Positions 19,763 through 48,411 of a DNA stretch of 60,242 nt are shown in pieces. The position numbers and the translations under genes were made by a program. Under the pieces are notes generated by a model. It was given only the letters and a program-made list of their open reading frames with translations, searched no databases and was not told the origin of the DNA. Source of the DNA: Nitrospirota bacterium (lineage in GTDB: Bacteria > Nitrospirota > Thermodesulfovibrionia > Thermodesulfovibrionales > JdFR-85); the NCBI GenBank assembly GCA_015484595.1, contig WFMM01000124.1, positions 1 to 60,242 on the forward strand. The letters are read 5' to 3'. Within the stretch, counting starts at the first letter, position 1. Every line of letters begins with the position of its first letter.

Positions 19763-19840
19763 TGGTCGGGGCGAGCCGATTCGAACGGCCGACCTCTCGC
19801 ACCCCAAGCGAGTGCGCTAACCAGACTGCGCCACGCCCCG
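19763..19840 (-). tRNA. tRNA-Pro (anticodon GGG), CCA encoded
   Basis: The reverse complement is CGGGGCGTGGCGCAGTCTGGTTAGCGCACTCGCTTGGGGTGCGAGAGGTCGGCCGTTCGAATCGGCTCGCCCCGACCA. It has a 7-bp acceptor stem, anticodon stem CTCGC/GCGAG with loop TTGGGGT, and a TTCGAAT T-loop. Confidence 0.9.
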
Positions 19841-20632: not shown

Positions 20633-20707
20633 TGGGGCGTAGCCAAAGGGCAAGGCAGGAGATTTTGGCTCTCCCATTTGCAGGTTCGAGTCCTGCCGCC
20701 CCAGCCA
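20633..20707 (+). tRNA. tRNA-Gln (anticodon TTG), CCA encoded
   Basis: The sequence is TGGGGCGTAGCCAAAGGGCAAGGCAGGAGATTTTGGCTCTCCCATTTGCAGGTTCGAGTCCTGCCGCCCCAGCCA. It has anticodon stem GGAGA/TCTCC with loop TTTTGGC, and acceptor TGGGGCG/CGCCCCA. Confidence 0.9.
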
Positions 20708-38987: not shown

Positions 38988-40436
38988 TCAGCCCTTCACC
39001 ACGCCGAGGGGACGGAGCTTTGCAACCTTTTTTGATATGCCAGCACGCTCAACCACATCAACCACACTGGAGATGTCCTTGTAGGCCTCTGACATCTCCT
39101 CGGCAAGGGTCTTTCGTCCAGCACTTCGCACAAGAATGCCTGCATCCTCCATCTCACGCCATATTGCCCTTCCCTTTGCCCTTTTTATGGCCTGATGCCT
39201 TGAAAGCACCCTGCCTGCACCGTGACAGGTTGAACCAAAGCTCTCCTTCATTGCCTGCTCAGTGCCTATCAGAACATAGGAGGCCCTTCCCATGTCACCA
39301 GGGATAAGAACAGGCTGTCCGATGTCTCTGTACCTGTCAGGTATCTCAGGGTGGCCTGCTGAAAATGCCCTGGTTGCACCTTTACGGTGAACTATAAGCC
39401 TTCTTTTTTTGCCATCCACTGTATGTTGCTCTACCTTTGCAATATTATGGGCAACATCATAAATCAGGTGCATCCCCAGTTCGGTTTTGCTTGCTCCAAG
39501 CACCTTCATAAAGGCTACCCTGCACCAGTGCATTATACACTGACGGTTTGCCCATGCATAGTTTGCCGCTGCCTTCATTGCAGCAAAATAATCCTGAGCC
39601 TCCTGAGAGTTAAAGGGAGCGCAGGCAAGCTCTTTATCAGGAAGGTTGATGCCGTACTTCTTCACTGCGCTTTCCATAACCTGAAGGTAGTCAGTGCAGA
39701 CCTGATGTCCAAACCCCCTTGAGCCAGTGTGTATCATGAGGGTTACCTGCTCTGGAAAGAGACCAAAAACCTGTGCAGCCCTTTCGTCGTAAATCTCCTC
39801 AACATACTGTATCTCAAGGAAGTGATTTCCTGAACCAAGCGTGCCCTGCTGAGCCCTTCCACGCTCGTAGGCCTTCTCACTTATCAAGGAGGGGTCAGCT
39901 CCCTCTATGGCACCACCTGATTCTATGTACAGAAGGTCCTCAGGCTCACCATATCCCTGCTCAACAGCCCAGCGTGCACCCCTAAGTAGCAGCCTCTCCT
40001 GGTCGGTTCTTGAAAGCCTGAGTCTACCCTTTGAGCCTACCCCGGAAGGTATTTCCTTAAACAGGACCTCCACGAGGTCCCTCATCCTGGGGAGCACCTC
40101 GGAGCGTCTGAGGTTGCTCCTCAGGAGTCTCACCCCTCAGTTTATGTCGTATCCAACACCACCAGGAGAAATAATCCCCTGCTCTATGTCAAAGGCTGCA
40201 ACCCCTCCAATGCAAAAACCATAGCCAGTGTGAACATCGGGCATCGCAAGGGACCTGCCTGTTATGCCAGGAAGGGTGGCAACATTGGCAACCTGCTTAA
40301 TTGCATCAGGCTCCAAATAGTTCTGAAGCACACTGTCAACATAAATAATGCCCTCCACAGCCATGCCCTGAACATAACCAATGGGCACCTTCAGCCTTGT
40401 TTCATCAAGCCTTTCTATGGTAACCTGCCCTGACAT
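38988..40436 (-). CDS. rtcB: RNA-splicing ligase RtcB with an in-frame TGA (40137-40139) at the catalytic-site cysteine position; candidate selenoprotein
   Basis: Track ORFs 40137-40436 and 38988-40133 share a frame and are separated only by one TGA. The junction reads [16 protein letters not shown], against the canonical [17 protein letters not shown] and CHGAGR are intact. The total of 482 codons is a normal RtcB length. Confidence 0.75.
40086..40125 (-). promoter_or_regulatory. Candidate bacterial SECIS hairpin downstream of the rtcB UGA
   Basis: The RNA has CCUG/CAGG (4 bp), an A-C mismatch, GGAGC/GCUCC (5 bp), a bulged A, ACCUC/GAGGU (5 bp) and a 9-nt loop AGACGCUCC. The stem starts 12 nt after the UGA. 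Confidence 0.5.
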
Positions 40437-40440
40437 AAAG

Positions 40441-40626
40441 CCCCCCCAATATTTCTAAATACTAATTTCTAAACACTAAACACTAAACACTCAACACTAA
40501 ACACTAAACACTCAACACTATCTACCCCAACCCTATAAACGCTACAACGCAATTAACGCTATTAACGCGACTAACGCAACGAACGCAATGAACGCTATAA
40601 ACGCAATTAACGCTATTAACGCAATT
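40441..40626. repeat. Composite repeat element filling the archease-rtcB spacer: C7, H1, (CACTMAA)7, C-box, N9 x11
   Basis: Modules in order: atttctaaatactaatttctaaa (40451-40473); cactaaa/cactcaa x7 (40474-40522); TACCCCAACCCT (40523-40534); eleven AACGC-cored units (40535-40626) running into the archease stop codon. Confidence 0.85.
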
Positions 40627-41045
40627 TATATATCAAAAATAACCTCAACGCTCCAAAGGCCGTTTTGTTTTTCGATTTTAAGGTTGTGGTAGGTTGCTGC
40701 CTTGATCAAAAGCCCCTTTTCGTGTTTTTCAGGGTCAAATTCCTCTCCAAAAACAGTGGCCTCTATTCTGTTTTCTGTTAGGTTTTTTATCTCGATATCC
40801 CTTCCAAGAAAACCGTATGTGTCGAACTGAAAGATAAGCTCGTTCAGCCAGCCCACAAGAAGACCGTCGAGGCTTTCTGCATAGACATTGATATCTACAG
40901 CCTTTGAGGAGTGTATGTTACTGTTTTCTGTAATTAAGTTGTAAAGCCCTCTGGCAGCGTTTATAAAGAGCTTTTCAAGATTCTCGCCAAATACCCTGAT
41001 TCCCACATCGCCAGAGATGTCAAGGATCTCGAAGTCTTTATCCAT
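40626..41045 (-). CDS. Archease (RtcB activator)
   Basis: The 139-aa product has an N-terminal FEILDISGDVGIRVFG and a C-terminal KAATYHNLKIEK...VIFDI, both typical of archease. It lies upstream of rtcB on the same strand. Confidence 0.85.
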   Translation of the reverse strand: MDKDFEILDISGDVGIRVFGENLEKLFINAARGLYNLITENSNIHSSKAVDINVYAESLDGLLVGWLNELIFQFDTYGFLGRDIEIKNLTENRIEATVFGEEFDPEKHEKGLLIKAATYHNLKIEKQNGLWSVEVIFDI

Positions 41046-42148: not shown

Positions 42149-43561
42149 GTGGGAATGGGGAGATTAGATGTGAGGTGTAATGTATCAATTCCTGTAACAA
42201 TCCTTACTGATAAGGTTACAAAGGAAACAGAAACAAAAAATATCGGCTTGAAGGGTGCCCTTTTAAGAGAGTCCGTCCCATTTACGGAAAAGGAAATCAT
42301 CCGTTTAAAGGCAAGGATTCCTGAATTAGGTGAGTTTCAGAGTGACGTAAGGGTAGTGAGAAAAGACCAGGGTGGTATAGCTGTAAGGTTTTTAAACATA
42401 GACCCGACATCAAGGCATGCCCTCTGGAACTACATAAAGGGACACATTCACACCACAAAGGAATGCCCCTTTTGTGGGTTCAATAACGAAGTAGCCGATG
42501 TAGAGATATGCAAAAATTGTGGGCTTCCAGTAAATGTAACAGAGAGGGAATTTCATGAGATAGAAAAGGAGATTAAGAAGAAGTGGTTAAAGTTCATAGA
42601 TAATGCTACTGAGGAATTTATAAAAAAGTGCCAGGAGATAGAAGACCTTATAGAACAGGACAGGCTATCATCAGATGAGATATATCTGAGGCTTAAGGGC
42701 ACATTTAACGAATTTGTTGACAGGGCAGAGCTTTTTGAAACAGGAATTTCTGACAGGGAATTAATTGAAAGATGCAGAAAGGAGTTTCATGAAAAAACAA
42801 ACCACCTGTTTATAAAAAGCTATGCCTTTAACAGGACAAGAACATGGCCTAAGGGATACCAGGGTGATTATAAGACTCTGGAAGGTATATACAGAAACAC
42901 ACCCCTTTCAAGGTGGATTGGTTATTACATGGATTACTATGCACTTAACACCACCCTTGCAAAGGCTGTAAGAAACAGGCTAAGGATTTTAACAGACCTT
43001 CTGAGAAGTGAACTTGAAAAAAGAAAAGAGCCCAGGGTATTAAACATCGCCTGTGGCTCGTGCAGGGAGCTCATGGACCTTATACCTCAGATAGAAGATT
43101 CTCAGGCTAAAATAACCTGTATTGATACTGATGAGGATGCCCTCTCCTTTGCATACAACCGATTGAGCATAGCCAGGACAATTGCATCAAACATAGAGTT
43201 TCGTTATTACAACGCCTTAAGGCTTTTTGATTACGAAATAGTAGAAAGAGACTTCCCCAGGCAGGACATAATCTACAGCGTTGGTCTTTTTGATTATCTG
43301 GAAACAGACACACTTATAAAAATATTGAGAAATCTCTACAGGCATCTAAATAAAAATGGCCTGCTGATTGCAGCATTCAAGGATGTCAGACAGTACAGAC
43401 CTCAGCCTTATCACTGGTTTATGGACTGGACTGGTTTTCTACAGAGAAACGAAGAGGACTTTCTTGCCATACTAAAAGAGGCTGAAATTCCTGATGGTGC
43501 AGTTGAAAATTTAAGAGATGATACTAGGGCAATAATTTTCTACAGAATAACAAAGATATAA
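42149..43561 (+). CDS. Three-module protein: PilZ domain + C4 zinc ribbon + class I SAM-dependent methyltransferase
   Basis: The PilZ module has RLDVR (RxxxR) and NIGLKG (a D/NxSxxG-like motif). The zinc ribbon is CPFCG...CKNCG. The methyltransferase motif I is VLNIACGSCRELMDL, with later motifs SVGLFDYL and GLLIAAF. Confidence 0.72.
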   Translation: MGMGRLDVRCNVSIPVTILTDKVTKETETKNIGLKGALLRESVPFTEKEIIRLKARIPELGEFQSDVRVVRKDQGGIAVRFLNIDPTSRHALWNYIKGHIHTTKECPFCGFNNEVADVEICKNCGLPVNVTEREFHEIEKEIKKKWLKFIDNATEEFIKKCQEIEDLIEQDRLSSDEIYLRLKGTFNEFVDRAELFETGISDRELIERCRKEFHEKTNHLFIKSYAFNRTRTWPKGYQGDYKTLEGIYRNTPLSRWIGYYMDYYALNTTLAKAVRNRLRILTDLLRSELEKRKEPRVLNIACGSCRELMDLIPQIEDSQAKITCIDTDEDALSFAYNRLSIARTIASNIEFRYYNALRLFDYEIVERDFPRQDIIYSVGLFDYLETDTLIKILRNLYRHLNKNGLLIAAFKDVRQYRPQPYHWFMDWTGFLQRNEEDFLAILKEAEIPDGAVENLRDDTRAIIFYRITKI

Positions 43562-43563
43562 AG

Positions 43564-44310
43564 GTGGCATTACTAAAAGACAGAGTTGCTATTATTACAG
43601 GGGGCTCCCGGGGTATTGGCAGAGCTATTGTTTCCAGCTTTGCAAAAGAGGGCGCCCTTTGTGCTTTTACCTTTTCAAGTAGCTCAAAGGAAGCAGAGGC
43701 CCTGTCCACGGAGCTAAAGGCAATGGGTTCAAGGGTGATGTGCGAAAGGGTGGATGTCAGAGACTACGAAGGGGTAAAGGAGTTCGTGGAAAAGGTCAAA
43801 GAAGAGTTTGGAGGTCTGGACATACTGGTCAACAATGCTGGTATTAACAAAGACAAATCAATTATCATGATGACCCATGAGGACTGGCAGGATGTGATTG
43901 ATGTTAATCTTACAGGGGTTTTCAACTTCACCAAGGCCTGCATCGTAACTTTTCTTAAGCAAAAGTCAGGGTGTATTATAAATATGTCCTCAGTAAGTGG
44001 CCTCTCACCCTTGCCTGGTCAGGCAAGCTATGCATCGGCAAAATCTGGGGTTATCGGATTAACAAAGGCCCTCGCCCGTGAGGTGGCACCTTACAATGTA
44101 AGGGTCAATGCAATTGCCCCTGGTTTTATTGAGACCGATATGGTAAAAAGCCTTAACGAAAACTACAGAAAAAAGATTCTGGACTTGATTCCATTTAAAA
44201 GGTTAGGGACGACCGAAGAAGTAGCACAGGGATGTGTTTACCTTGCCAGCGATTATGCCTCCTACATCACAGGACAGGTGTTAACCATTGATGGTGGGCT
44301 TAGTATTTAA
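43564..44310 (+). CDS. fabG: 3-oxoacyl-[ACP] reductase (SDR)
   Basis: It has TGGSRGIG, NNAG and a catalytic S...YASAKSG motif. The start is GTG, 3 nt after the upstream stop. Confidence 0.85.
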   Translation: MALLKDRVAIITGGSRGIGRAIVSSFAKEGALCAFTFSSSSKEAEALSTELKAMGSRVMCERVDVRDYEGVKEFVEKVKEEFGGLDILVNNAGINKDKSIIMMTHEDWQDVIDVNLTGVFNFTKACIVTFLKQKSGCIINMSSVSGLSPLPGQASYASAKSGVIGLTKALAREVAPYNVRVNAIAPGFIETDMVKSLNENYRKKILDLIPFKRLGTTEEVAQGCVYLASDYASYITGQVLTIDGGLSI

Positions 44311-44316
44311 TTTTTT

Positions 44317-45531
44317 ATGAAAGACTCTGAGCTTGTTATTACAGGCATAGGGATAATTTCTCCTGCTGGCATTGGAAAAGATGCTTTCTGGCAGGGCCTT
44401 TGTGAAGGGAAAAACTGTCTTGGAGATATTACGCTTTTTAGCACCGATGGATTTAATGTCAAAAAGGCATGCGAGATAACCGACTTTAATCCTCTGGATT
44501 TTATACACAAGCGTCACCTGAGAACCCTTGACAGAAGCACAAGACTTCTAATAGCTGCAACCAGTCTGGCCCTTGAGGATTCAGGAATCAATATAAACGA
44601 GCAAAACACCTTTGATACTGGCTTCGTTGCTGGTAGCACCTTTGGAAGCCTTCACAGTATATTTCAGTTTGACAGAGAAGGGCTGATCGAGGGTCCTAAA
44701 TATGTAAACCCCTCCTTTTTCCCAAACACGGTTATTAACTCACCTGCAAGTCAGGCTGCTATTCAATTCAAGATAAAGGGGTTTAACACTACCATTTCAA
44801 CAGGTCTCTGTGCATCTCTTGATGCATTCATATATGCCTGCGATTTTCTGAGGCTTAAAAGAGCAAATACCGTACTGGTGGGAGGCGTGGAGGAGCTTTG
44901 TGAAGAGATATTCATGGGACTTTATCAGTGTGGACTGCTTTCTGGCCTGGATGGCTCAGAGCCCATCTGCAGTCCCTTTGACAAGAACAGAAATGGACTA
45001 GTGCTTTCTGAAGGTGCTGCAGTGCTTGTGCTGGAAAGAAAGGAGCACGCCCTTAGAAGGGATGCCCCTGTTTTAGCAATGGTCGTATCCTATGCAAATA
45101 GCTTTTCACCTAATAAAAAGCAATCATCAGGACTTGAGATATCCATAAACAGGGCTCTTAAATCAGCAAACCTTAAACCCGAAGATATTGACCTGGTGTT
45201 TTCTTCAGCCAATTCAACGAAGGAACTTGACAGGCTTGAGGCAGGAGTGATTAAAAGCATCTTTGGAAAAAAAGTTAAAATAACTGCTATTAAGTCTACA
45301 ATTGGAGAGCCCTGCTCTGCCTCTGGTGGATTTTTGTTGTCCTCTGCTTCCATGGCACTTACAACCAAGCTCGTGCCACCAACTGTGAATTCTAAAGAGC
45401 TTGACCCTGAGTGTGACATCAATTTAGTTACTGAAGGTGGGGGGCTTTCTGGTCTTAAGAGGGTCATGGTTATCGGCTCAGACCCTTATGGAAACAGCTC
45501 AGCAATAATACTTCAGGGCTACGAATCATGA
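44317..45531 (+). CDS. Beta-ketoacyl synthase-like protein lacking both catalytic histidines (KS partner/CLF-like)
   Basis: It has a thiolase fold. The active-site Cys context is retained (ISTGLCASLDA). HGTGT is replaced by SSANST, and KSxxGH by KSTIGEPCSASGG. Confidence 0.78.
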   Translation: MKDSELVITGIGIISPAGIGKDAFWQGLCEGKNCLGDITLFSTDGFNVKKACEITDFNPLDFIHKRHLRTLDRSTRLLIAATSLALEDSGININEQNTFDTGFVAGSTFGSLHSIFQFDREGLIEGPKYVNPSFFPNTVINSPASQAAIQFKIKGFNTTISTGLCASLDAFIYACDFLRLKRANTVLVGGVEELCEEIFMGLYQCGLLSGLDGSEPICSPFDKNRNGLVLSEGAAVLVLERKEHALRRDAPVLAMVVSYANSFSPNKKQSSGLEISINRALKSANLKPEDIDLVFSSANSTKELDRLEAGVIKSIFGKKVKITAIKSTIGEPCSASGGFLLSSASMALTTKLVPPTVNSKELDPECDINLVTEGGGLSGLKRVMVIGSDPYGNSSAIILQGYES

Positions 45532-46736
45532 AGAAAGTCGTAATAACAGGCATAGGTCTTATAACCTCGATCGGTATAGGAAAAGAAGAGTTCTGGAAGA
45601 ATCTTCTCTCTGGCAGGTCTGGTATCAGCCCTGTGACTGCCTTTGACACGAAAGAGCACTTCACGCATCTTGGCGGAGAGGTCAAAAACTTTAGCCCCGA
45701 AGATATGGGGCTTTCTGAATACATTGATACCTGTAGCAGGGCCTCTCTGCTTGCCATTTCTGCCACGAAGCTTGCCATTGAAGACTCAGGTCTTAATTTA
45801 TCAGCAGAGCACCCTACAGATACGGCCGTCTGTATTGGAACCACAATGGGAGCTGTTCAGTCCTCGGAATTCATAAACGAACAGATGGTCTTACACGGCG
45901 TGCAGCAGTTTAGAAGGGAAGAAATCTCTAAGGTGCCTACCCATTCAACCTCATCAATTGTTTCCAGGCTTAATAAACTGTCAGGCCCATCGATGATGTT
46001 TTCCACTGCCTGTGCTGCTGGAAACTACGCAATTGGCTATGGAACGGATTTAATAAGACTGGGGAGAGCACAGATAGCTTTGGTCGGTGGTGCTGAGCCC
46101 TTTTCAAAGGTGGCCTTTACGGGCTTTAATCAATTCAAGGCTGTGGCACCTGAGAAGTGCCAGCCCTTTGATAAAAACCGTAAGGGCATGATGGTTGCCG
46201 AGGGTGCCGCAGTGCTCGTGCTTGAATCACTGGAGCATGCTCTTGAACGAGGTGCAGAGATATATGCTGAAGTACTCGGATACGGTCTTAGCTGTGATGC
46301 AAAGCACATGACCACTCCATCTGTAGAAGGGATAGTTCTGTGTATGAAAAAGGCACTGAGGTACTCTGGCATCACGCCTGATGAGGTGGATTACATCAGT
46401 GCCCATGGCACTGGAACCATTGCAAACGACAGAGCAGAGGTGGCAGCAATAAAAGAGGTTTTTGGAAACAGATACAGAGAGATACCGGTAAGCTCTATAA
46501 AATCAATGCTCGGTCACACAATGGGTGCTGCCTCAGCAATCGAAGCTTCAGCCTGTGCACTTGCCATAAAGACTGGTTATATCCCACCGACTATCAATTT
46601 CGAAACCCCAGACCCAGATTGCGATGTAGATTGTGTGCCCAATGTGGCAAGAAAACAGGAGGTTTACATAGCAATGAATAACTCCTATGCCTTTGGCGGA
46701 AATAATGCTTCGCTAATTTTAAAAAAATTCTCTTAA
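45528..46736 (+). CDS. fabF: Beta-ketoacyl-[ACP] synthase II-type condensing enzyme (complete Cys-His-His triad)
   Basis: It has FSTACAAGNYA (Cys), ISAHGTGT (His) and KSMLGHTMGAAS (His). An ATGA overlap links it to the upstream KS-like gene. Confidence 0.88.
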   Translation: MKKVVITGIGLITSIGIGKEEFWKNLLSGRSGISPVTAFDTKEHFTHLGGEVKNFSPEDMGLSEYIDTCSRASLLAISATKLAIEDSGLNLSAEHPTDTAVCIGTTMGAVQSSEFINEQMVLHGVQQFRREEISKVPTHSTSSIVSRLNKLSGPSMMFSTACAAGNYAIGYGTDLIRLGRAQIALVGGAEPFSKVAFTGFNQFKAVAPEKCQPFDKNRKGMMVAEGAAVLVLESLEHALERGAEIYAEVLGYGLSCDAKHMTTPSVEGIVLCMKKALRYSGITPDEVDYISAHGTGTIANDRAEVAAIKEVFGNRYREIPVSSIKSMLGHTMGAASAIEASACALAIKTGYIPPTINFETPDPDCDVDCVPNVARKQEVYIAMNNSYAFGGNNASLILKKFS

Positions 46737-46748
46737 CAGGAGGCACCT

Positions 46749-46997
46749 ATGGGGAACAGTGTAGAGCAAGAAATCATATCGATTGTCTCTGATGTAACAG
46801 GCTTTGAGCCTGAAGAGATTACGCCTGATAAGAATTTTTTTGAAGACCTTGAGGTTGACTCGATTAAGGCCATCGAGATTGCAGTTGCCATTGAAAAGAA
46901 GTTCAAGGTATCAGTAAGGGATGATGAAATTCCAAAAATCACAACCGTAAAGCATGCAGTAGACCTCGTAAACAGTCTCCTTTCGCAAAAGAACTAA
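46749..46997 (+). CDS. Acyl carrier protein
   Basis: The 82-aa product has the phosphopantetheine site LEVDSIKAIEI (DS motif). Confidence 0.85.
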   Translation: MGNSVEQEIISIVSDVTGFEPEEITPDKNFFEDLEVDSIKAIEIAVAIEKKFKVSVRDDEIPKITTVKHAVDLVNSLLSQKN

Positions 46998-46998
46998 G

Positions 46999-48411
46999 AT
47001 GCCTTTAAAGGGAACAGAAACATACGACGCAGTAATTATAGGTGCTGGCATTGGTGGTCTTGTGTGTGGTTGTTATCTTGCTAAGGCTGGCTTGAAGGTG
47101 TTGATAGTGGAGCAACACTACAAACCAGGTGGATATTGCACATCTTTTAAGAGAAAGGGCTTTACCTTTGATGCAGCTGCACATTCAATAGGAGGAATAA
47201 AGTTAGGAAATGTTGGAAGGATTTTTAACGAGTTAGGAGTATATAATAGATTAAAATTAACCAAAATAAATCCTTCAGATATTGTATTATACAAAAAATA
47301 TAAAATTTCATATTACTCAGACATTCAAAAAACTATTGAAAATTTTCAGGACGCCTTTCCACAAGAAAGTAAAAATATTAGAAGTTTTTTTGAAAATATT
47401 ATAAATCCCACTCCTCTATTCTTTGCTAATCTCAGAAGTTGGACCTTTGAACGTCTTTTAGATAGTTATTTTAAGAATAATGAGTTGAAAGCTATTATTG
47501 CCTATCCTCTTCTTGGAAATGGTGGCTTACCTCCTTCGCTTTTATCAGCGTTTATAGGGGCAAAGATATATAAAGAATTCTTAATCGACGGTGGTTATTA
47601 TCCAAATAAAAGCATGCAAAGTTTACCCGATACACTTGTTAACATATTTAAAGAGAATAATGGAGATATAATTTTATCGGGATCTGTTAAAAAAGTATTG
47701 ATTGAAAATAATCGTGCTATTGGAATAATTTTGGAAAAGAATTCACAACCTATTCGAGCAAATTATATTATATCTAACATTGATGCAAGAACTACTTATC
47801 TTAATTTAATAGGTAAAGAACATTTACCATCTGATTTCTTAAAAAAAATTGTTCAAATGAAATATACCAATTCCATGTTTATTGTTTATTTAGGTTATGC
47901 AGAGCCAATTGAAGATTTACCATCAGGTGCAAATTTATGGTTGCTTTCAGATTCTAATCTAAACGAAATTTATAATAGTTCTATTAATGGTAATATATTC
48001 AAAAAGAAAAGTTTCATGATACATATTGGCTTAGATAGAAAAACAGTAATTGCTTTTGTTATGGCTCCATTTATATCAAAAGAATTCTGGTATGAAAACA
48101 AAATAAGATGGACCAATAATTTTATAGAATTAGTAACGAGTTATTTTCCAGAATTAAGACACAATCTCGTATATAAAGAAGCTGCTACTCCTTATACTCT
48201 TTATAGGTATACATCTAATTTTAAAGGGGCAGCCTATGGGTGGGCAAGTGTGCCTAATCAATTAGCTGATAATGACTTTAGAAAACCATCATTTATAAAA
48301 AATCTTTATCTTACAGGACACTGGACCACTCAGGGGTTAGGCATTCCTGGCGTTACATATATCAGCTATGATCTCGCAAGGTTTATAATGAAAAAAGAAA
48401 AAATAATTTAG
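46999..48411 (+). CDS. FAD-dependent oxidoreductase of the phytoene-desaturase (CrtI/COG1233) family
   Basis: It has the dinucleotide fold YDAVIIGAGIGGLVCGCYLAKAGLKVLIVEQHYKPGG and is 470 aa long. Most of the gene is extremely AT-rich. Confidence 0.78.
   Translation: MPLKGTETYDAVIIGAGIGGLVCGCYLAKAGLKVLIVEQHYKPGGYCTSFKRKGFTFDAAAHSIGGIKLGNVGRIFNELGVYNRLKLTKINPSDIVLYKKYKISYYSDIQKTIENFQDAFPQESKNIRSFFENIINPTPLFFANLRSWTFERLLDSYFKNNELKAIIAYPLLGNGGLPPSLLSAFIGAKIYKEFLIDGGYYPNKSMQSLPDTLVNIFKENNGDIILSGSVKKVLIENNRAIGIILEKNSQPIRANYIISNIDARTTYLNLIGKEHLPSDFLKKIVQMKYTNSMFIVYLGYAEPIEDLPSGANLWLLSDSNLNEIYNSSINGNIFKKKSFMIHIGLDRKTVIAFVMAPFISKEFWYENKIRWTNNFIELVTSYFPELRHNLVYKEAATPYTLYRYTSNFKGAAYGWASVPNQLADNDFRKPSFIKNLYLTGHWTTQGLGIPGVTYISYDLARFIMKKEKII

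Follow-up and report, generated by a model that had tools for sequence, protein, structure and literature searches.

An in-frame UGA at the metal-bridging cysteine codon of Nitrospirota rtcB: a candidate selenocysteine-containing RNA ligase

Is an rtcB gene that is interrupted by a single in-frame TGA a broken gene, a split gene, or a recoded one, and if it is recoded, which residue is inserted? The question arises from a stretch of 60,242 nt of a Nitrospirota metagenome-assembled genome (hereafter the window), in which two minus-strand ORFs, 40137-40436 (99 codons plus TGA) and 38988-40133, share one frame with a single TGA between them. Read through, they form an otherwise intact rtcB of 482 sense codons (38988-40436, minus strand), with its ATG at 40434-40436, a proposed selenocysteine (Sec) UGA at 40137-40139 and a terminal TGA at 38988-38990. 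When Cys is placed at the internal TGA, the 482-residue product matches the Pfam RtcB family PF01139 over profile positions 1-426 of 426 (residues 48-482, E 1.2e-179), and P. horikoshii RtcB structures (PDB 1uc2/4dwq/7lfq) align to residues 5-482 (E about 6e-182); its predicted activity is that of an RtcB 3'-phosphate/5'-OH RNA ligase, which joins 2',3'-cyclic-phosphate or 3'-phosphate ends to 5'-OH ends with GTP and Mn2+. The TGA is codon 100 and falls in the alignment column of P. horikoshii Cys98, equivalent to Cys122 of human RTCB. The catalytic residues D97, H205, H236, H330 and H405 are present and correspond to P. horikoshii D95, H203, H234, H329 and H404, and the full metal-binding and GMP-accepting set occupies the expected columns in the alignment to PDB 7lfq/1uc2, with UGA in the Cys98 column. 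A sequence-only reading of the window had joined the two ORFs across the TGA into an RtcB of normal size, had set the TGA on the metal-ligand Cys, and had described the downstream catalytic segments as intact and the gene as part of an archease-rtcB arrangement; the sequence itself, the end-to-end Pfam match and the structure-based alignment bear it out on all these points, and an archease gene does lie directly upstream.

The ligand roles of the metal-binding set are known from earlier work (PMC10630183): Cys98 coordinates both Mn2+ ions, and ligation is lost when its equivalent is replaced in the RtcB of E. coli, P. aerophilum or humans. This metal-bridging Cys is also oxidation-sensitive, and its oxidative inactivation is known. 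Of the window's 41 ORFs that are 200 aa or longer, 17 end in TGA, which is the commonest stop there and terminates rtcB as well; UGA is thus a normal stop in this genome, and read-through at codon 100 must therefore be site-specific.

The archease gene, encoding the RtcB activation factor, is at 40626-41045 on the minus strand (PF01951, E 1.1e-40). Among loci with upstream DNA, archease is immediately upstream of rtcB in 27 of 29 TGA-form loci vs 27 of 43 Cys-form loci. Archease activates the guanylylation of RTCB (PMC10944509). The archease-rtcB spacer (40451-40626) holds two short tandem-repeat arrays detected by Tandem Repeats Finder, one with a 7-nt unit (40469-40520) and one with a 9-nt unit (40546-40626), and may contain the rtcB promoter or a regulatory region. 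In the closest relative (locus L001), a similar GCGTT-containing 9-nt periodic array occupies the same place in the spacer.

Relatives of this gene show what is tolerated at codon 100. Among 79 Nitrospirota (Thermodesulfovibrionia) species representatives, the codon in the Cys98 column was TGA in 33, TGC in 36 and TGT in 10, and in none was it TAA or TAG, which is the TGA/TGC alternation that had been proposed as a check on orthologues. The flanks of the exchanged codon are invariant (GYDIN_GVR) in TGA and Cys forms alike, and the two states are mixed over the RtcB protein tree, requiring at least 11 changes by parsimony. The 33 TGA-form lineages are distinct at the species level (72-86% protein identity), and all 33 keep 382-383 codons after the TGA without further stops or frameshifts. 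In TGA-form orthologues, purifying selection acts both before and after the TGA, with a median dN/dS of 0.063 downstream, where dS is saturated. Among metagenomic TGA forms, 79 have a complete 3' end, and in 78 of these 375-400 codons follow the TGA.

The nucleotides that follow the TGA carry a second layer of constraint. In the window, an 86-nt stretch at this place has a folding energy of -38.2 kcal/mol (z -2.98 vs dinucleotide shuffles), and two hairpins that are candidate SECIS elements lie downstream of the TGA, both on the minus strand. Hairpin 1 (40085-40126), with the form UCCU(G/C)-A-GGAGCA-A-CCUC / loop / GAGG-UGCUCC-C-(C/G)AGGA, has its apical loop 27 nt after the UGA; the strong hairpin claimed to start 12 nt after the TGA is present, with its start corrected to the 11th nt. 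Hairpin 2 (40063-40081), GGGACCUC-GUG-GAGGUCCU, has an 8-bp stem and a 3-nt loop located 63 nt after the UGA. Covariation was counted on a hand-specified structure in 34 TGA forms. Hairpin 1 pairing held in 92.6% of cells, vs 45-56% with the partner slid, with compensatory changes at pairs 15-54, 18-51 and 21-48; hairpin 2 pairing held in 97.8% of cells, with loop residues G67 and U68 invariant in 34/34, and this hairpin is absent in most Cys forms. The compensatory pairs were CG/GC (21:12), CG/UA and GC/AU, and the covariation score was above 500/500 shuffles and all slid controls. RNAalifold, run on the 34 sequences, recovered the lower stem of hairpin 1 alone, because the upper stem changes register between sublineages.

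Synonymous sites and folding energies point the same way. Over hairpin 1, the entropy of third positions drops sharply at codons +4 to +8 and at +17, in TGA forms only, while for hairpin 2 it is 0-0.33 in TGA forms vs 1.45-1.98 in Cys forms at codons +20, +21, +23 and +24. In the hairpin zone, dS was 0.82 for TGA forms vs a median of 1.49 for Cys forms, the latter from estimable pairs, most Cys pairs being saturated. The 60 nt downstream fold at -25.7 kcal/mol in TGA forms vs -12.9 kcal/mol in Cys forms (Mann-Whitney p 7.6e-13). Compared with synonymous recodings that used each gene's own codon usage, the median z was -4.13 for TGA forms vs -0.38 for Cys forms; 30 of 34 TGA forms beat all 100 recodings, and the window had a z of -4.25. 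Strong structure occurs in just three Cys forms, L054, L062 and L065, and these adjoin TGA forms on the tree or retain TGA-form-like sequence. Hence, selection acts on the RNA structure that follows the UGA, a structure specific to the UGA forms, and the expectation that hairpin conservation would be confined to TGA forms holds for compensatory changes, for reduced synonymous divergence and for stability above recodings. The signal also biases local residues, with R117, R119, E123 and V124 favored in TGA forms.

The Nitrospirota recoding signal, with its two hairpins, is not a textbook bacterial SECIS. [quoted passage not shown] Hairpin 1 of the window is within this model in spacing (27 nt) and energy (-25.4 kcal/mol); it fits the loop criterion only in a suboptimal fold that lacks the 2-bp ministem of the MFE fold (loop AGACGCUCC), and hairpin 1 has no conserved apical-loop G across the TGA forms. 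Hairpin 2 has a GU loop, but at 63 nt from the UGA it is outside the usual 16-37 nt. Applied strictly to MFE folds, the criteria fit 12/34 TGA forms vs 8/46 Cys forms; since they separate the two poorly, covariation, synonymous-site constraint and synonymous-recoding controls were used. An Rfam scan of the whole window at gathering thresholds returned one tRNA alone and no SECIS family, and a permissive Rfam scan of 39950-40250 gave chance matches to miRNA-like hairpins and again no SECIS family; these nulls are uninformative, because bacterial SECIS elements are poorly modeled.

TGA-form rtcB extends well beyond the Nitrospirota type. Contigs from many metagenome projects, at least 120 in all, carry the junction GYDIN-TGA-G. 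Most of these contigs come from a second lineage, commoner than the Nitrospirota type, whose RtcB shares only 54-64% identity with that of the window; one member of this lineage is labeled Deltaproteobacteria. In 60 of 64 distinct second-lineage sequences, a hairpin of 5 bp or more has an apical loop of GGUC, GGUU or similar that starts at about nt 25 from the U of the UGA. These hairpins are built on several different stem sequences and fit the published bacterial SECIS model in its canonical form. One metagenomic TGA form, L091, has an extra stop 75 codons downstream. Gene callers split the TGA-form rtcB in two in every database. When N-terminal RtcB fragments were used as queries, 2106 and 6303 database proteins were retrieved; the best 120 of the 2106 and the best 120 of the 6303 were almost all 97-100 residues long, and 16 of 16 short proteins fetched from the 2106-protein list end in GYDIN, the point at which partial Cys-form database proteins continue with CGVRLL. 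Taken together, the recurrence of TGA, its alternation with Cys codons only, the intact frame and the RNA signal exclude chance, and the claim that the TGA is no random nonsense mutation has withstood the comparison, the decay that was sought in relatives being found in 0 of 33.

Decoding of UGA as Sec requires dedicated genes, and we searched for them near rtcB. The 60-kb window contained no selA, selB, selD or tRNA-Sec by ARAGORN and by tblastn with E. coli SelA, SelB and SelD, and the same tblastn queries found no selA, selB or selD in the related loci (1.87 Mb). Two SelB-like tblastn matches were BipA and a CysN/EF-1A-like GTPase, not SelB. In a related MAG locus, L040, a tRNA-Sec gene is located 7 kb from rtcB (72 bits with the Rfam tRNA-Sec model); it was the sole tRNA-Sec-like gene from ARAGORN scans of the window and related loci. 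An in-frame-TGA scan of the window for other selenoprotein genes gave adjacent-gene and off-frame artefacts alone, and a crude screen of all loci for Sec/Cys pairs was overrun with off-frame ORFs from conserved genes. As these searches found none of selA, selB, selC and selD in the window, the Sec trait of this genome is assumed from relatives: complete selABCD has been published for Thermodesulfovibrio, as has a selC/selB overlap in Nitrospirae. Judged from these relatives and from the tRNA-Sec of L040, the clade is able to decode Sec.

We consider it very likely that the locus encodes a full-length RtcB in which the UGA at codon 100 is recoded as Sec through SelB and tRNA-Sec, directed by downstream mRNA structure. 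Sec would be inserted co-translationally by the bacterial SelB/tRNA-Sec pathway, and the directing structure would lie inside the coding sequence, immediately downstream of the UGA; in Nitrospirota it would consist of the two conserved hairpins at 40085-40126 and 40063-40081, to which SelB presumably binds. In the product, a selenol would take the place of the invariant Cys thiol, and selenium would then ligate the two catalytic Mn2+ ions, which bind GTP for guanylylation of the active-site histidine (His405 here). The most plausible benefit would be resistance to, or reversibility of, the oxidative inactivation to which the Cys is subject, or a changed metal affinity. While the placement of the UGA on the Cys column, the restriction of that column to TGA and Cys codons, the purifying selection on the downstream frame and the selection on structure in TGA forms are direct observations, that the inserted residue is Sec is something we infer from sequence.

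The alternative that survives best is that the UGA is recoded, always or partly, as Cys by a tRNA-Sec-like tRNA(Cys)UCA (selC*) together with SelB or a SelB paralogue, giving an ordinary Cys-RtcB; in a variant of this reading, the residue switches from Sec to Cys under selenium limitation. Cys normally occupies this position and is functional there, and sequence data alone are compatible with either residue. Moreover, Mukai et al. (PMC5389517) reported selC* tRNA(Cys) genes in Thermodesulfovibrio, Nitrospirae-like contigs and deltaproteobacteria, hosts that coincide with both groups carrying TGA-RtcB, and showed that a selC* version with a UCA anticodon reads a natural Sec-UGA as Cys in E. coli. 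However, the UCA-anticodon selC* and its dedicated CysRS* came from a Desulfobacterales subgroup rather than from Nitrospirae, and all selC*-carrying genomes had a complete Sec apparatus (PMC5389517). A need for Cys alone is met by TGC or TGT, as in 46 of the 79 relatives, and the long-term upkeep of a TGA plus a costly RNA structure therefore argues that Sec itself is selected. We regard recoding as Cys as improbable.

A second group of explanations, which we hold to be very improbable, takes the 99-residue and ~381-residue pieces as products of a truly split gene that assemble, or invokes near-cognate read-through (e.g., by Trp) or a reassigned code. In the window a GTG stands two codons after the TGA, and the second ORF starts there in a mechanical ORF list; at this second codon, only some TGA forms have GTG, the others having GTA, GTC or GTT, which leaves no conserved codon for a restart. 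Neither split pieces nor a Trp-containing product would carry the essential metal-bridging Cys or Sec, and the strict alternation of TGA with TGC and TGT is the mark of an exchange between Sec and Cys rather than of read-through with Trp. Reassignment is excluded by the role of TGA as the window's commonest stop and as the terminator of rtcB itself. That rtcB is a pseudogene, with a nonsense mutation that happened to fall on the Cys codon of a dead or dying gene, might be suggested by the two-ORF split in every database and by the second stop of L091, but we give it hardly any weight: TGA is found in 33 species-level lineages without decay and in a second lineage, TAA and TAG are never found, the hairpin zone is specific to TGA forms, and the 33/33 intact frames with dN/dS of about 0.06 remove this reading. 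Sequencing or assembly error at a true TGC or TGT, conceivable for a window that comes from a metagenome-assembled genome, has a negligible probability given the identical 99-residue N-terminal product and split in a second assembly, Logan SRR10309773 (locus L082), which may or may not draw on independent reads, the TGA that 33 further species genomes and at least 120 contigs from metagenomes have at this column, and the presence of the TGA-specific hairpins in the window. The comparative evidence thus leads us to reject the pseudogene, sequencing-error, split-gene and code-reassignment readings.

With Sec as the preferred reading, RtcB would very probably constitute a selenoprotein family that is both new and widespread. 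The 119 prokaryotic families listed in a 2026 selenoprotein catalogue do not include it, and no natural Sec-RtcB was found in the literature searched, where an engineered U98 protein was the sole match; the sequence-only remark that RtcB is not an established selenoprotein family therefore stands. For a broader proposal the odds appear to us evenly balanced, namely that Sec-RtcB is an uncatalogued widespread family, known to date from Thermodesulfovibrionia and the lineage with the Deltaproteobacteria-labeled member and represented by thousands of database fragments, and the first in RNA repair or splicing, that its selection stems from oxidative inactivation of the Cys, and that the two hairpins constitute a new kind of SECIS.

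The RNA ligase RtcB occurs universally and has been studied heavily; it serves tRNA splicing, bacterial RNA repair and, in the unfolded protein response, the splicing of XBP1. Its Cys is a weak point, subject to metal-catalyzed oxidative inactivation, which animals counter with the protector PYROXD1. If the Sec reading is true, the selenoproteome extends into RNA metabolism; on the broader proposal, selenium would bridge two catalytic metals of a non-redox nucleotidyl-transfer enzyme, and these anaerobes would solve chemically what animals do with PYROXD1. A natural Sec would also provide a ready test of a selenium ligand on Mn2+-type metals, and of the oxidation-tolerance hypothesis against Cys variants. 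Furthermore, as gene callers yield a 99-residue stub plus a shortened C-terminal ORF, thousands of rtcB genes in metagenome bins of the Nitrospirota and deltaproteobacterial types would be misannotated and selenoproteome counts too low. The atypical two-hairpin signal may broaden bacterial SECIS models.

Compared with Cys-type RtcB (P. horikoshii PH1602, PDB 1UC2/4DWQ; E. coli; human RTCB), the window's protein is of the same Pfam family and length, with the same metal ligands (D97, H205, H236 and H330 in window numbering), the same guanylylated H405 and archease upstream. They differ in that Cys-type genes encode the bridging Cys by TGC or TGT, whereas the window gene has UGA, with the next 80 nt doubling as the putative recoding signal. 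The closest precedent for the proposed residue is the engineered P. horikoshii RtcB U98 (Haruna et al. 2014, PMC4150793), with Sec at exactly the same site. That protein is artificial, its Sec having been inserted at UAG by an EF-Tu-dependent tRNA with no SECIS, while the window's RtcB has a natural and maintained UGA that is associated with a candidate SECIS. As U98 shows, Sec in this place need not be benign, although U98 itself came from an intein-containing precursor.

With respect to the recoding signal, the bacterial SECIS consensus (bSECISearch model; E. coli formate dehydrogenase) is a stem-loop within the coding sequence right after the UGA, as here. The second RtcB lineage fits this consensus: a stem of 5-8 bp bears a loop of 3-6 nt, about 21 nt after the UGA, and the first two letters of the loop are mostly GG or GU. 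The Nitrospirota type departs from it. Its first hairpin, 15 bp long and interrupted, has a variable loop that is often rich in A, and its A19, C50 and A26 are unpaired but conserved; a second hairpin follows, with an invariant GU loop 63 nt from the UGA.

Known selenoenzymes offer parallels for the chemistry. In the formate dehydrogenase alpha subunit (Sec-Mo/W) and in [NiFeSe] hydrogenases (Sec-Ni), Sec replaces a metal-coordinating Cys, as proposed for RtcB, and in these enzymes, as in RtcB, Cys-containing orthologues coexist. The 119-family catalogue contains no selenoprotein of RNA repair or splicing. For [NiFeSe] hydrogenases, the proposed advantage of Sec is protection from irreversible over-oxidation of the active site (PMC13188914), which parallels the oxidative inactivation of the RtcB Cys. 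Formate dehydrogenase and the hydrogenases, however, serve redox energy metabolism, whereas the ligase RtcB transfers nucleotides without redox chemistry and usually works with Mn2+.

In the window, the minus-strand ORFs at 40137-40436 and 38988-40133 lie in a common reading frame with nothing but a TGA at 40137-40139 between them, as the sequence-only reading had described, and reading through this codon gives an RtcB of 482 residues. Translated with Cys at this codon, the protein matches the Pfam RtcB model from end to end (E 1.2e-179), and its residues 5-482 align with solved Pyrococcus horikoshii RtcB structures (E about 6e-182). There the column of P. horikoshii Cys98 is occupied by the TGA, codon 100, so the proposal that it replaces the invariant metal-ligand Cys holds. 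Cys98 is a ligand of both Mn2+ ions, one shared with His234 and His329 and the other with Asp95 and His203, and RtcB from E. coli, P. aerophilum and human is ligase-dead once the equivalent Cys is substituted (PMC10630183). No other catalytic residue is missing (D97, H205, H236, H330, and H405), those downstream of the TGA being intact as had been claimed, and the archease gene lies directly 5′ of rtcB in the arrangement previously noted. An identical rtcB split is present in the Logan assembly of SRR10309773.

The best NCBIfam match of the window protein was the intein-containing RtcB model NF038162, in two stretches abutting residue 100. The P. horikoshii RtcB intein is inserted exactly before the Cys equivalent to this residue, which serves as its splice-junction residue; with intein insertion and UGA at one position, two unrelated forms of recoding or processing share residue 100 as a hotspot.

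Scanning a single genome for each GTDB species yielded 80 loci. Almost all come from MAGs labelled Nitrospirota or Thermodesulfovibrionia, and their RtcB shares 72-86% identity with that of the window. The Cys98 column contained TGA in 33, TGC in 36 and TGT in 10, and TAA or TAG in none, so the alternation between TGA and Cys codons that had been sought among orthologues was found (33 TGA versus 46 TGC/TGT). The two states are interspersed on a neighbour-joining tree, with at least 11 changes by parsimony, a pattern typical of Sec/Cys exchange. After the TGA, 382 codons are kept in all TGA forms but one, which has 383, and codons +27 to +380 (counted downstream from the TGA) have a median pairwise Nei-Gojobori dN/dS of 0.063, with dS mostly saturated. 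Sequence beyond the "stop" must thus be translated and under constraint, which rules out both a sequencing error and a pseudogene; the decay looked for in these TGA-bearing relatives was absent. Database proteins reflect the same split. A 99-residue N-terminal fragment retrieved 2106 proteins, and among the best 120 of these nearly all were 97-99 residues long, the 16 short ones whose sequences were inspected all terminating in ...GYDIN and longer partial proteins running on with CGVRLL. With the full-length query, the best 120 matches were all full-length Cys forms (74-77% identical), and closer TGA-form orthologues were represented by split fragments only, none as one protein.

Two hairpins are conserved among 34 TGA forms within the 81 nt beginning at the UGA. 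Hairpin 1 (40085-40126, minus strand) has 15 bp, with a conserved A-C mismatch and a bulged A breaking the stem, and an apical loop beginning 27 nt after the UGA; a hairpin here had been predicted correctly, but it starts at the 11th nt after the UGA rather than at a distance of 12 nt. Hairpin 2 (40063-40081, minus strand) has an 8-bp stem and a 3-nt loop with an invariant G and U. The specified structure has 92.6% paired cells versus 45-56% when partners are slid, double changes occur at five pairs (for example pair 18-51, CG in 21 vs GC in 12), and the covariation score exceeded all 500 shuffles. At codons +4 to +8, +17, +19 to +21, and +23 to +24, TGA forms alone show a collapse of third-position entropy. 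The hairpin zone of TGA forms had a median dS of 0.82, compared with 1.49 among the estimable pairs of Cys forms, most of whose pairs were saturated. The residues most divergent between TGA and Cys forms also fall mainly within the hairpin zone (R117, R119, E123, V124), as expected if RNA structure constrains the protein.

As the cleanest of the controls, folding stability was compared with 100 synonymous recodings of codons +1 to +26 using each gene's own codon usage. TGA forms had a median z of -4.13, with 30 of 34 more stable than all 100 recodings, and the window itself gave -37.8 kcal/mol against a recoded mean of -23.2 (z -4.25). The expectation that only TGA forms keep the hairpin was borne out, with three exceptions: the median z of Cys forms was -0.38, and three of them (loci L054, L062, and L065) retain TGA-form-like hairpin sequence over the 78 nt after TGT/TGC (z -4.1 to -4.6). 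These are probably recent Sec-to-Cys conversions carrying a relic SECIS, the mRNA hairpin that directs Sec insertion.

As a putative SECIS, the Nitrospirota two-hairpin signal is atypical against the published bacterial model. Hairpin 1 has a variable loop from which the expected G is often missing, and the MFE folds of only 12 of the 34 TGA forms agree with the model, the window doing so only in a suboptimal fold. Hairpin 2 has a GU loop, but at 63 nt from the UGA versus 16-37 nt in the consensus. The invariant G-U in its 3-nt loop is the usual SelB-contact motif; both hairpins are candidates for SelB binding, and hairpin 1 might serve as a spacer instead.

Scanning metagenome contigs for the exact pattern GG(V/I)G(Y/F)D(I/V)N-TGA-G identified at least 120 contigs, most of those listed belonging to a separate and apparently more abundant TGA-RtcB lineage that shares only 54-64% identity with the window protein and reads U-GVRLMRSGLSR after ...GYDIN. 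Among the contigs listed, 78 of the 79 with a complete 3′ end retain 375-400 codons after the TGA. The single other case, L091 (SMTZ1_10037915), has an in-frame stop 75 codons after the TGA, which could reflect a real pseudogene or an assembly error. The N-terminal fragment of this lineage retrieved 6303 proteins, and nearly every one of the best 120 had a length of about 99-100 residues; a protein labelled Deltaproteobacteria bacterium RBG_16_50_11 is among the database members. Of 64 distinct sequences of the lineage among the contigs listed, 60 form a hairpin with 5 bp or more that fits the canonical bacterial SECIS model. Its apical loops (GGUC, GGUU, GGUCU, AGUU, CGUGUU and similar) start about nt 25 from the U of the UGA, and its stems vary yet remain complementary (GCUCA/UGAGC, GCUCC/GGAGC, GUUCC/GGAAC, GACCA/UGGUC, UCAGC/GCUGA, GAGGA/UCCUC), as in GCGCUCA-GGUC-UGAGC(C)GC at L146:4626-4685 (minus strand). 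The apical-loop sequence GGUCUG is read as Gly-Leu at a site where Asn-Leu is usual, so the protein here seems to have been reshaped by the RNA signal. An identical candidate Sec site with a different predicted SECIS solution in a separate lineage offers strong independent support for Sec-RtcB.

We consider it close to certain that the UGA is recoded within a functional rtcB, and very likely that the window rtcB is a genuine Sec-encoding gene. The best-supported reading is SelB/tRNA-Sec-dependent Sec insertion at codon 100, which would yield a full-length RtcB with selenium in place of sulfur as the ligand bridging two metals; the candidate Sec-containing RNA ligase of the sequence-only reading thus gains support from comparative and RNA-structure data. 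The 60-kb window contained no tRNA-Sec, selA, selB, selD, or other credible in-frame-TGA gene, and selA, selB, and selD were not found in the searched loci of related genomes. A tRNA-Sec is present in a Nitrospirae MAG (L040:13858-13955, plus strand), called by ARAGORN with anticodon tca and matching Rfam RF01852 at 72 bits. It lies at the contig end, 7 kb downstream from a Cys-type rtcB, and its neighbours are DUF498 and phosphoribosyltransferase genes, not selB. Complete selABCD has been reported from Thermodesulfovibrio genomes (PMC5389517), and selC embedded in selB from Nitrospirae (PMC13188914). We infer the Sec trait for the window's own genome, and this is the main gap in the Sec case. 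The one rival compatible with the sequence data is that a tRNA-Sec-like tRNA(Cys)UCA, of a kind described in some of the phyla concerned, puts Cys in at the UGA; its probability is low because TGC or TGT, as in many relatives, would suffice where only Cys is needed. A two-piece RtcB, Trp read-through, and code reassignment are each at odds with an essential residue at the TGA, the lack of a conserved restart codon, and the use of TGA as an ordinary stop in the window, where it is the most frequent among long ORFs (17 of 41) and also ends rtcB.

RtcB is not among the 119 prokaryotic selenoprotein families and subfamilies of a 2026 review, NCBIfam release 20 offers no model of RtcB as a selenoprotein, and no natural Sec-RtcB was found in the searchable literature (a scope outside which subscription journals and BSepDB supplementary tables fall), in agreement with the initial view that RtcB is not an established selenoprotein family. 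An engineered P. horikoshii RtcB with Sec at residue 98 has been described (Haruna et al. 2014, PMC4150793); it derives from a precursor that contains an intein, and it calls for caution, since Sec at this position is evidently not always harmless. Judged from these sequences, Sec-RtcB would in all likelihood be a new selenoprotein family using a known bacterial recoding mechanism, with a predicted SECIS architecture that is unusual in the Nitrospirota lineage.

Other features of the window were also recorded. The 190-nt archease-rtcB spacer (40451-40626) consists almost wholly of two tandem arrays, one of a 7-nt unit, CTAAACA, in 7.4 copies (40469-40520), and one of a 9-nt unit, AACGCAATT, in 9 copies with an 18- or 27-nt super-period (40546-40626). 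In L001, the closest relative (86% RtcB identity), a comparable 9-nt periodic array that contains GCGTT occupies the corresponding place, and such an array is missing from most other loci. ARAGORN called a 78-nt tRNA-Pro(GGG) at 19763-19840 (minus strand), which a gathering-threshold Rfam scan of the window did not report, giving only tRNA-Gln at 20633-20704. Beyond ksgA from rtcB, a divergently oriented cluster (42149-48411, plus strand; counterpart L081:2026-8282) encodes a PilZ-methyltransferase fusion, an SDR ketoreductase, two ketoacyl synthases, an acyl carrier protein, and an amine-oxidase-like flavoprotein, and might represent a small pathway of lipid or polyketide type that includes a c-di-GMP-binding domain.

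The RtcB Cys was found oxidised in an archaeal enzyme purified aerobically, and metal-ion-induced oxidation of the human RTCB Cys inactivates the enzyme unless PYROXD1 shields it (PMC10630183, PMC12263435). Sec100 may make such inactivation reversible, or may shift metal affinity or selectivity, by analogy with [NiFeSe] hydrogenases, in which the accepted rationale for Sec is that the metal site is guarded against irreversible over-oxidation.
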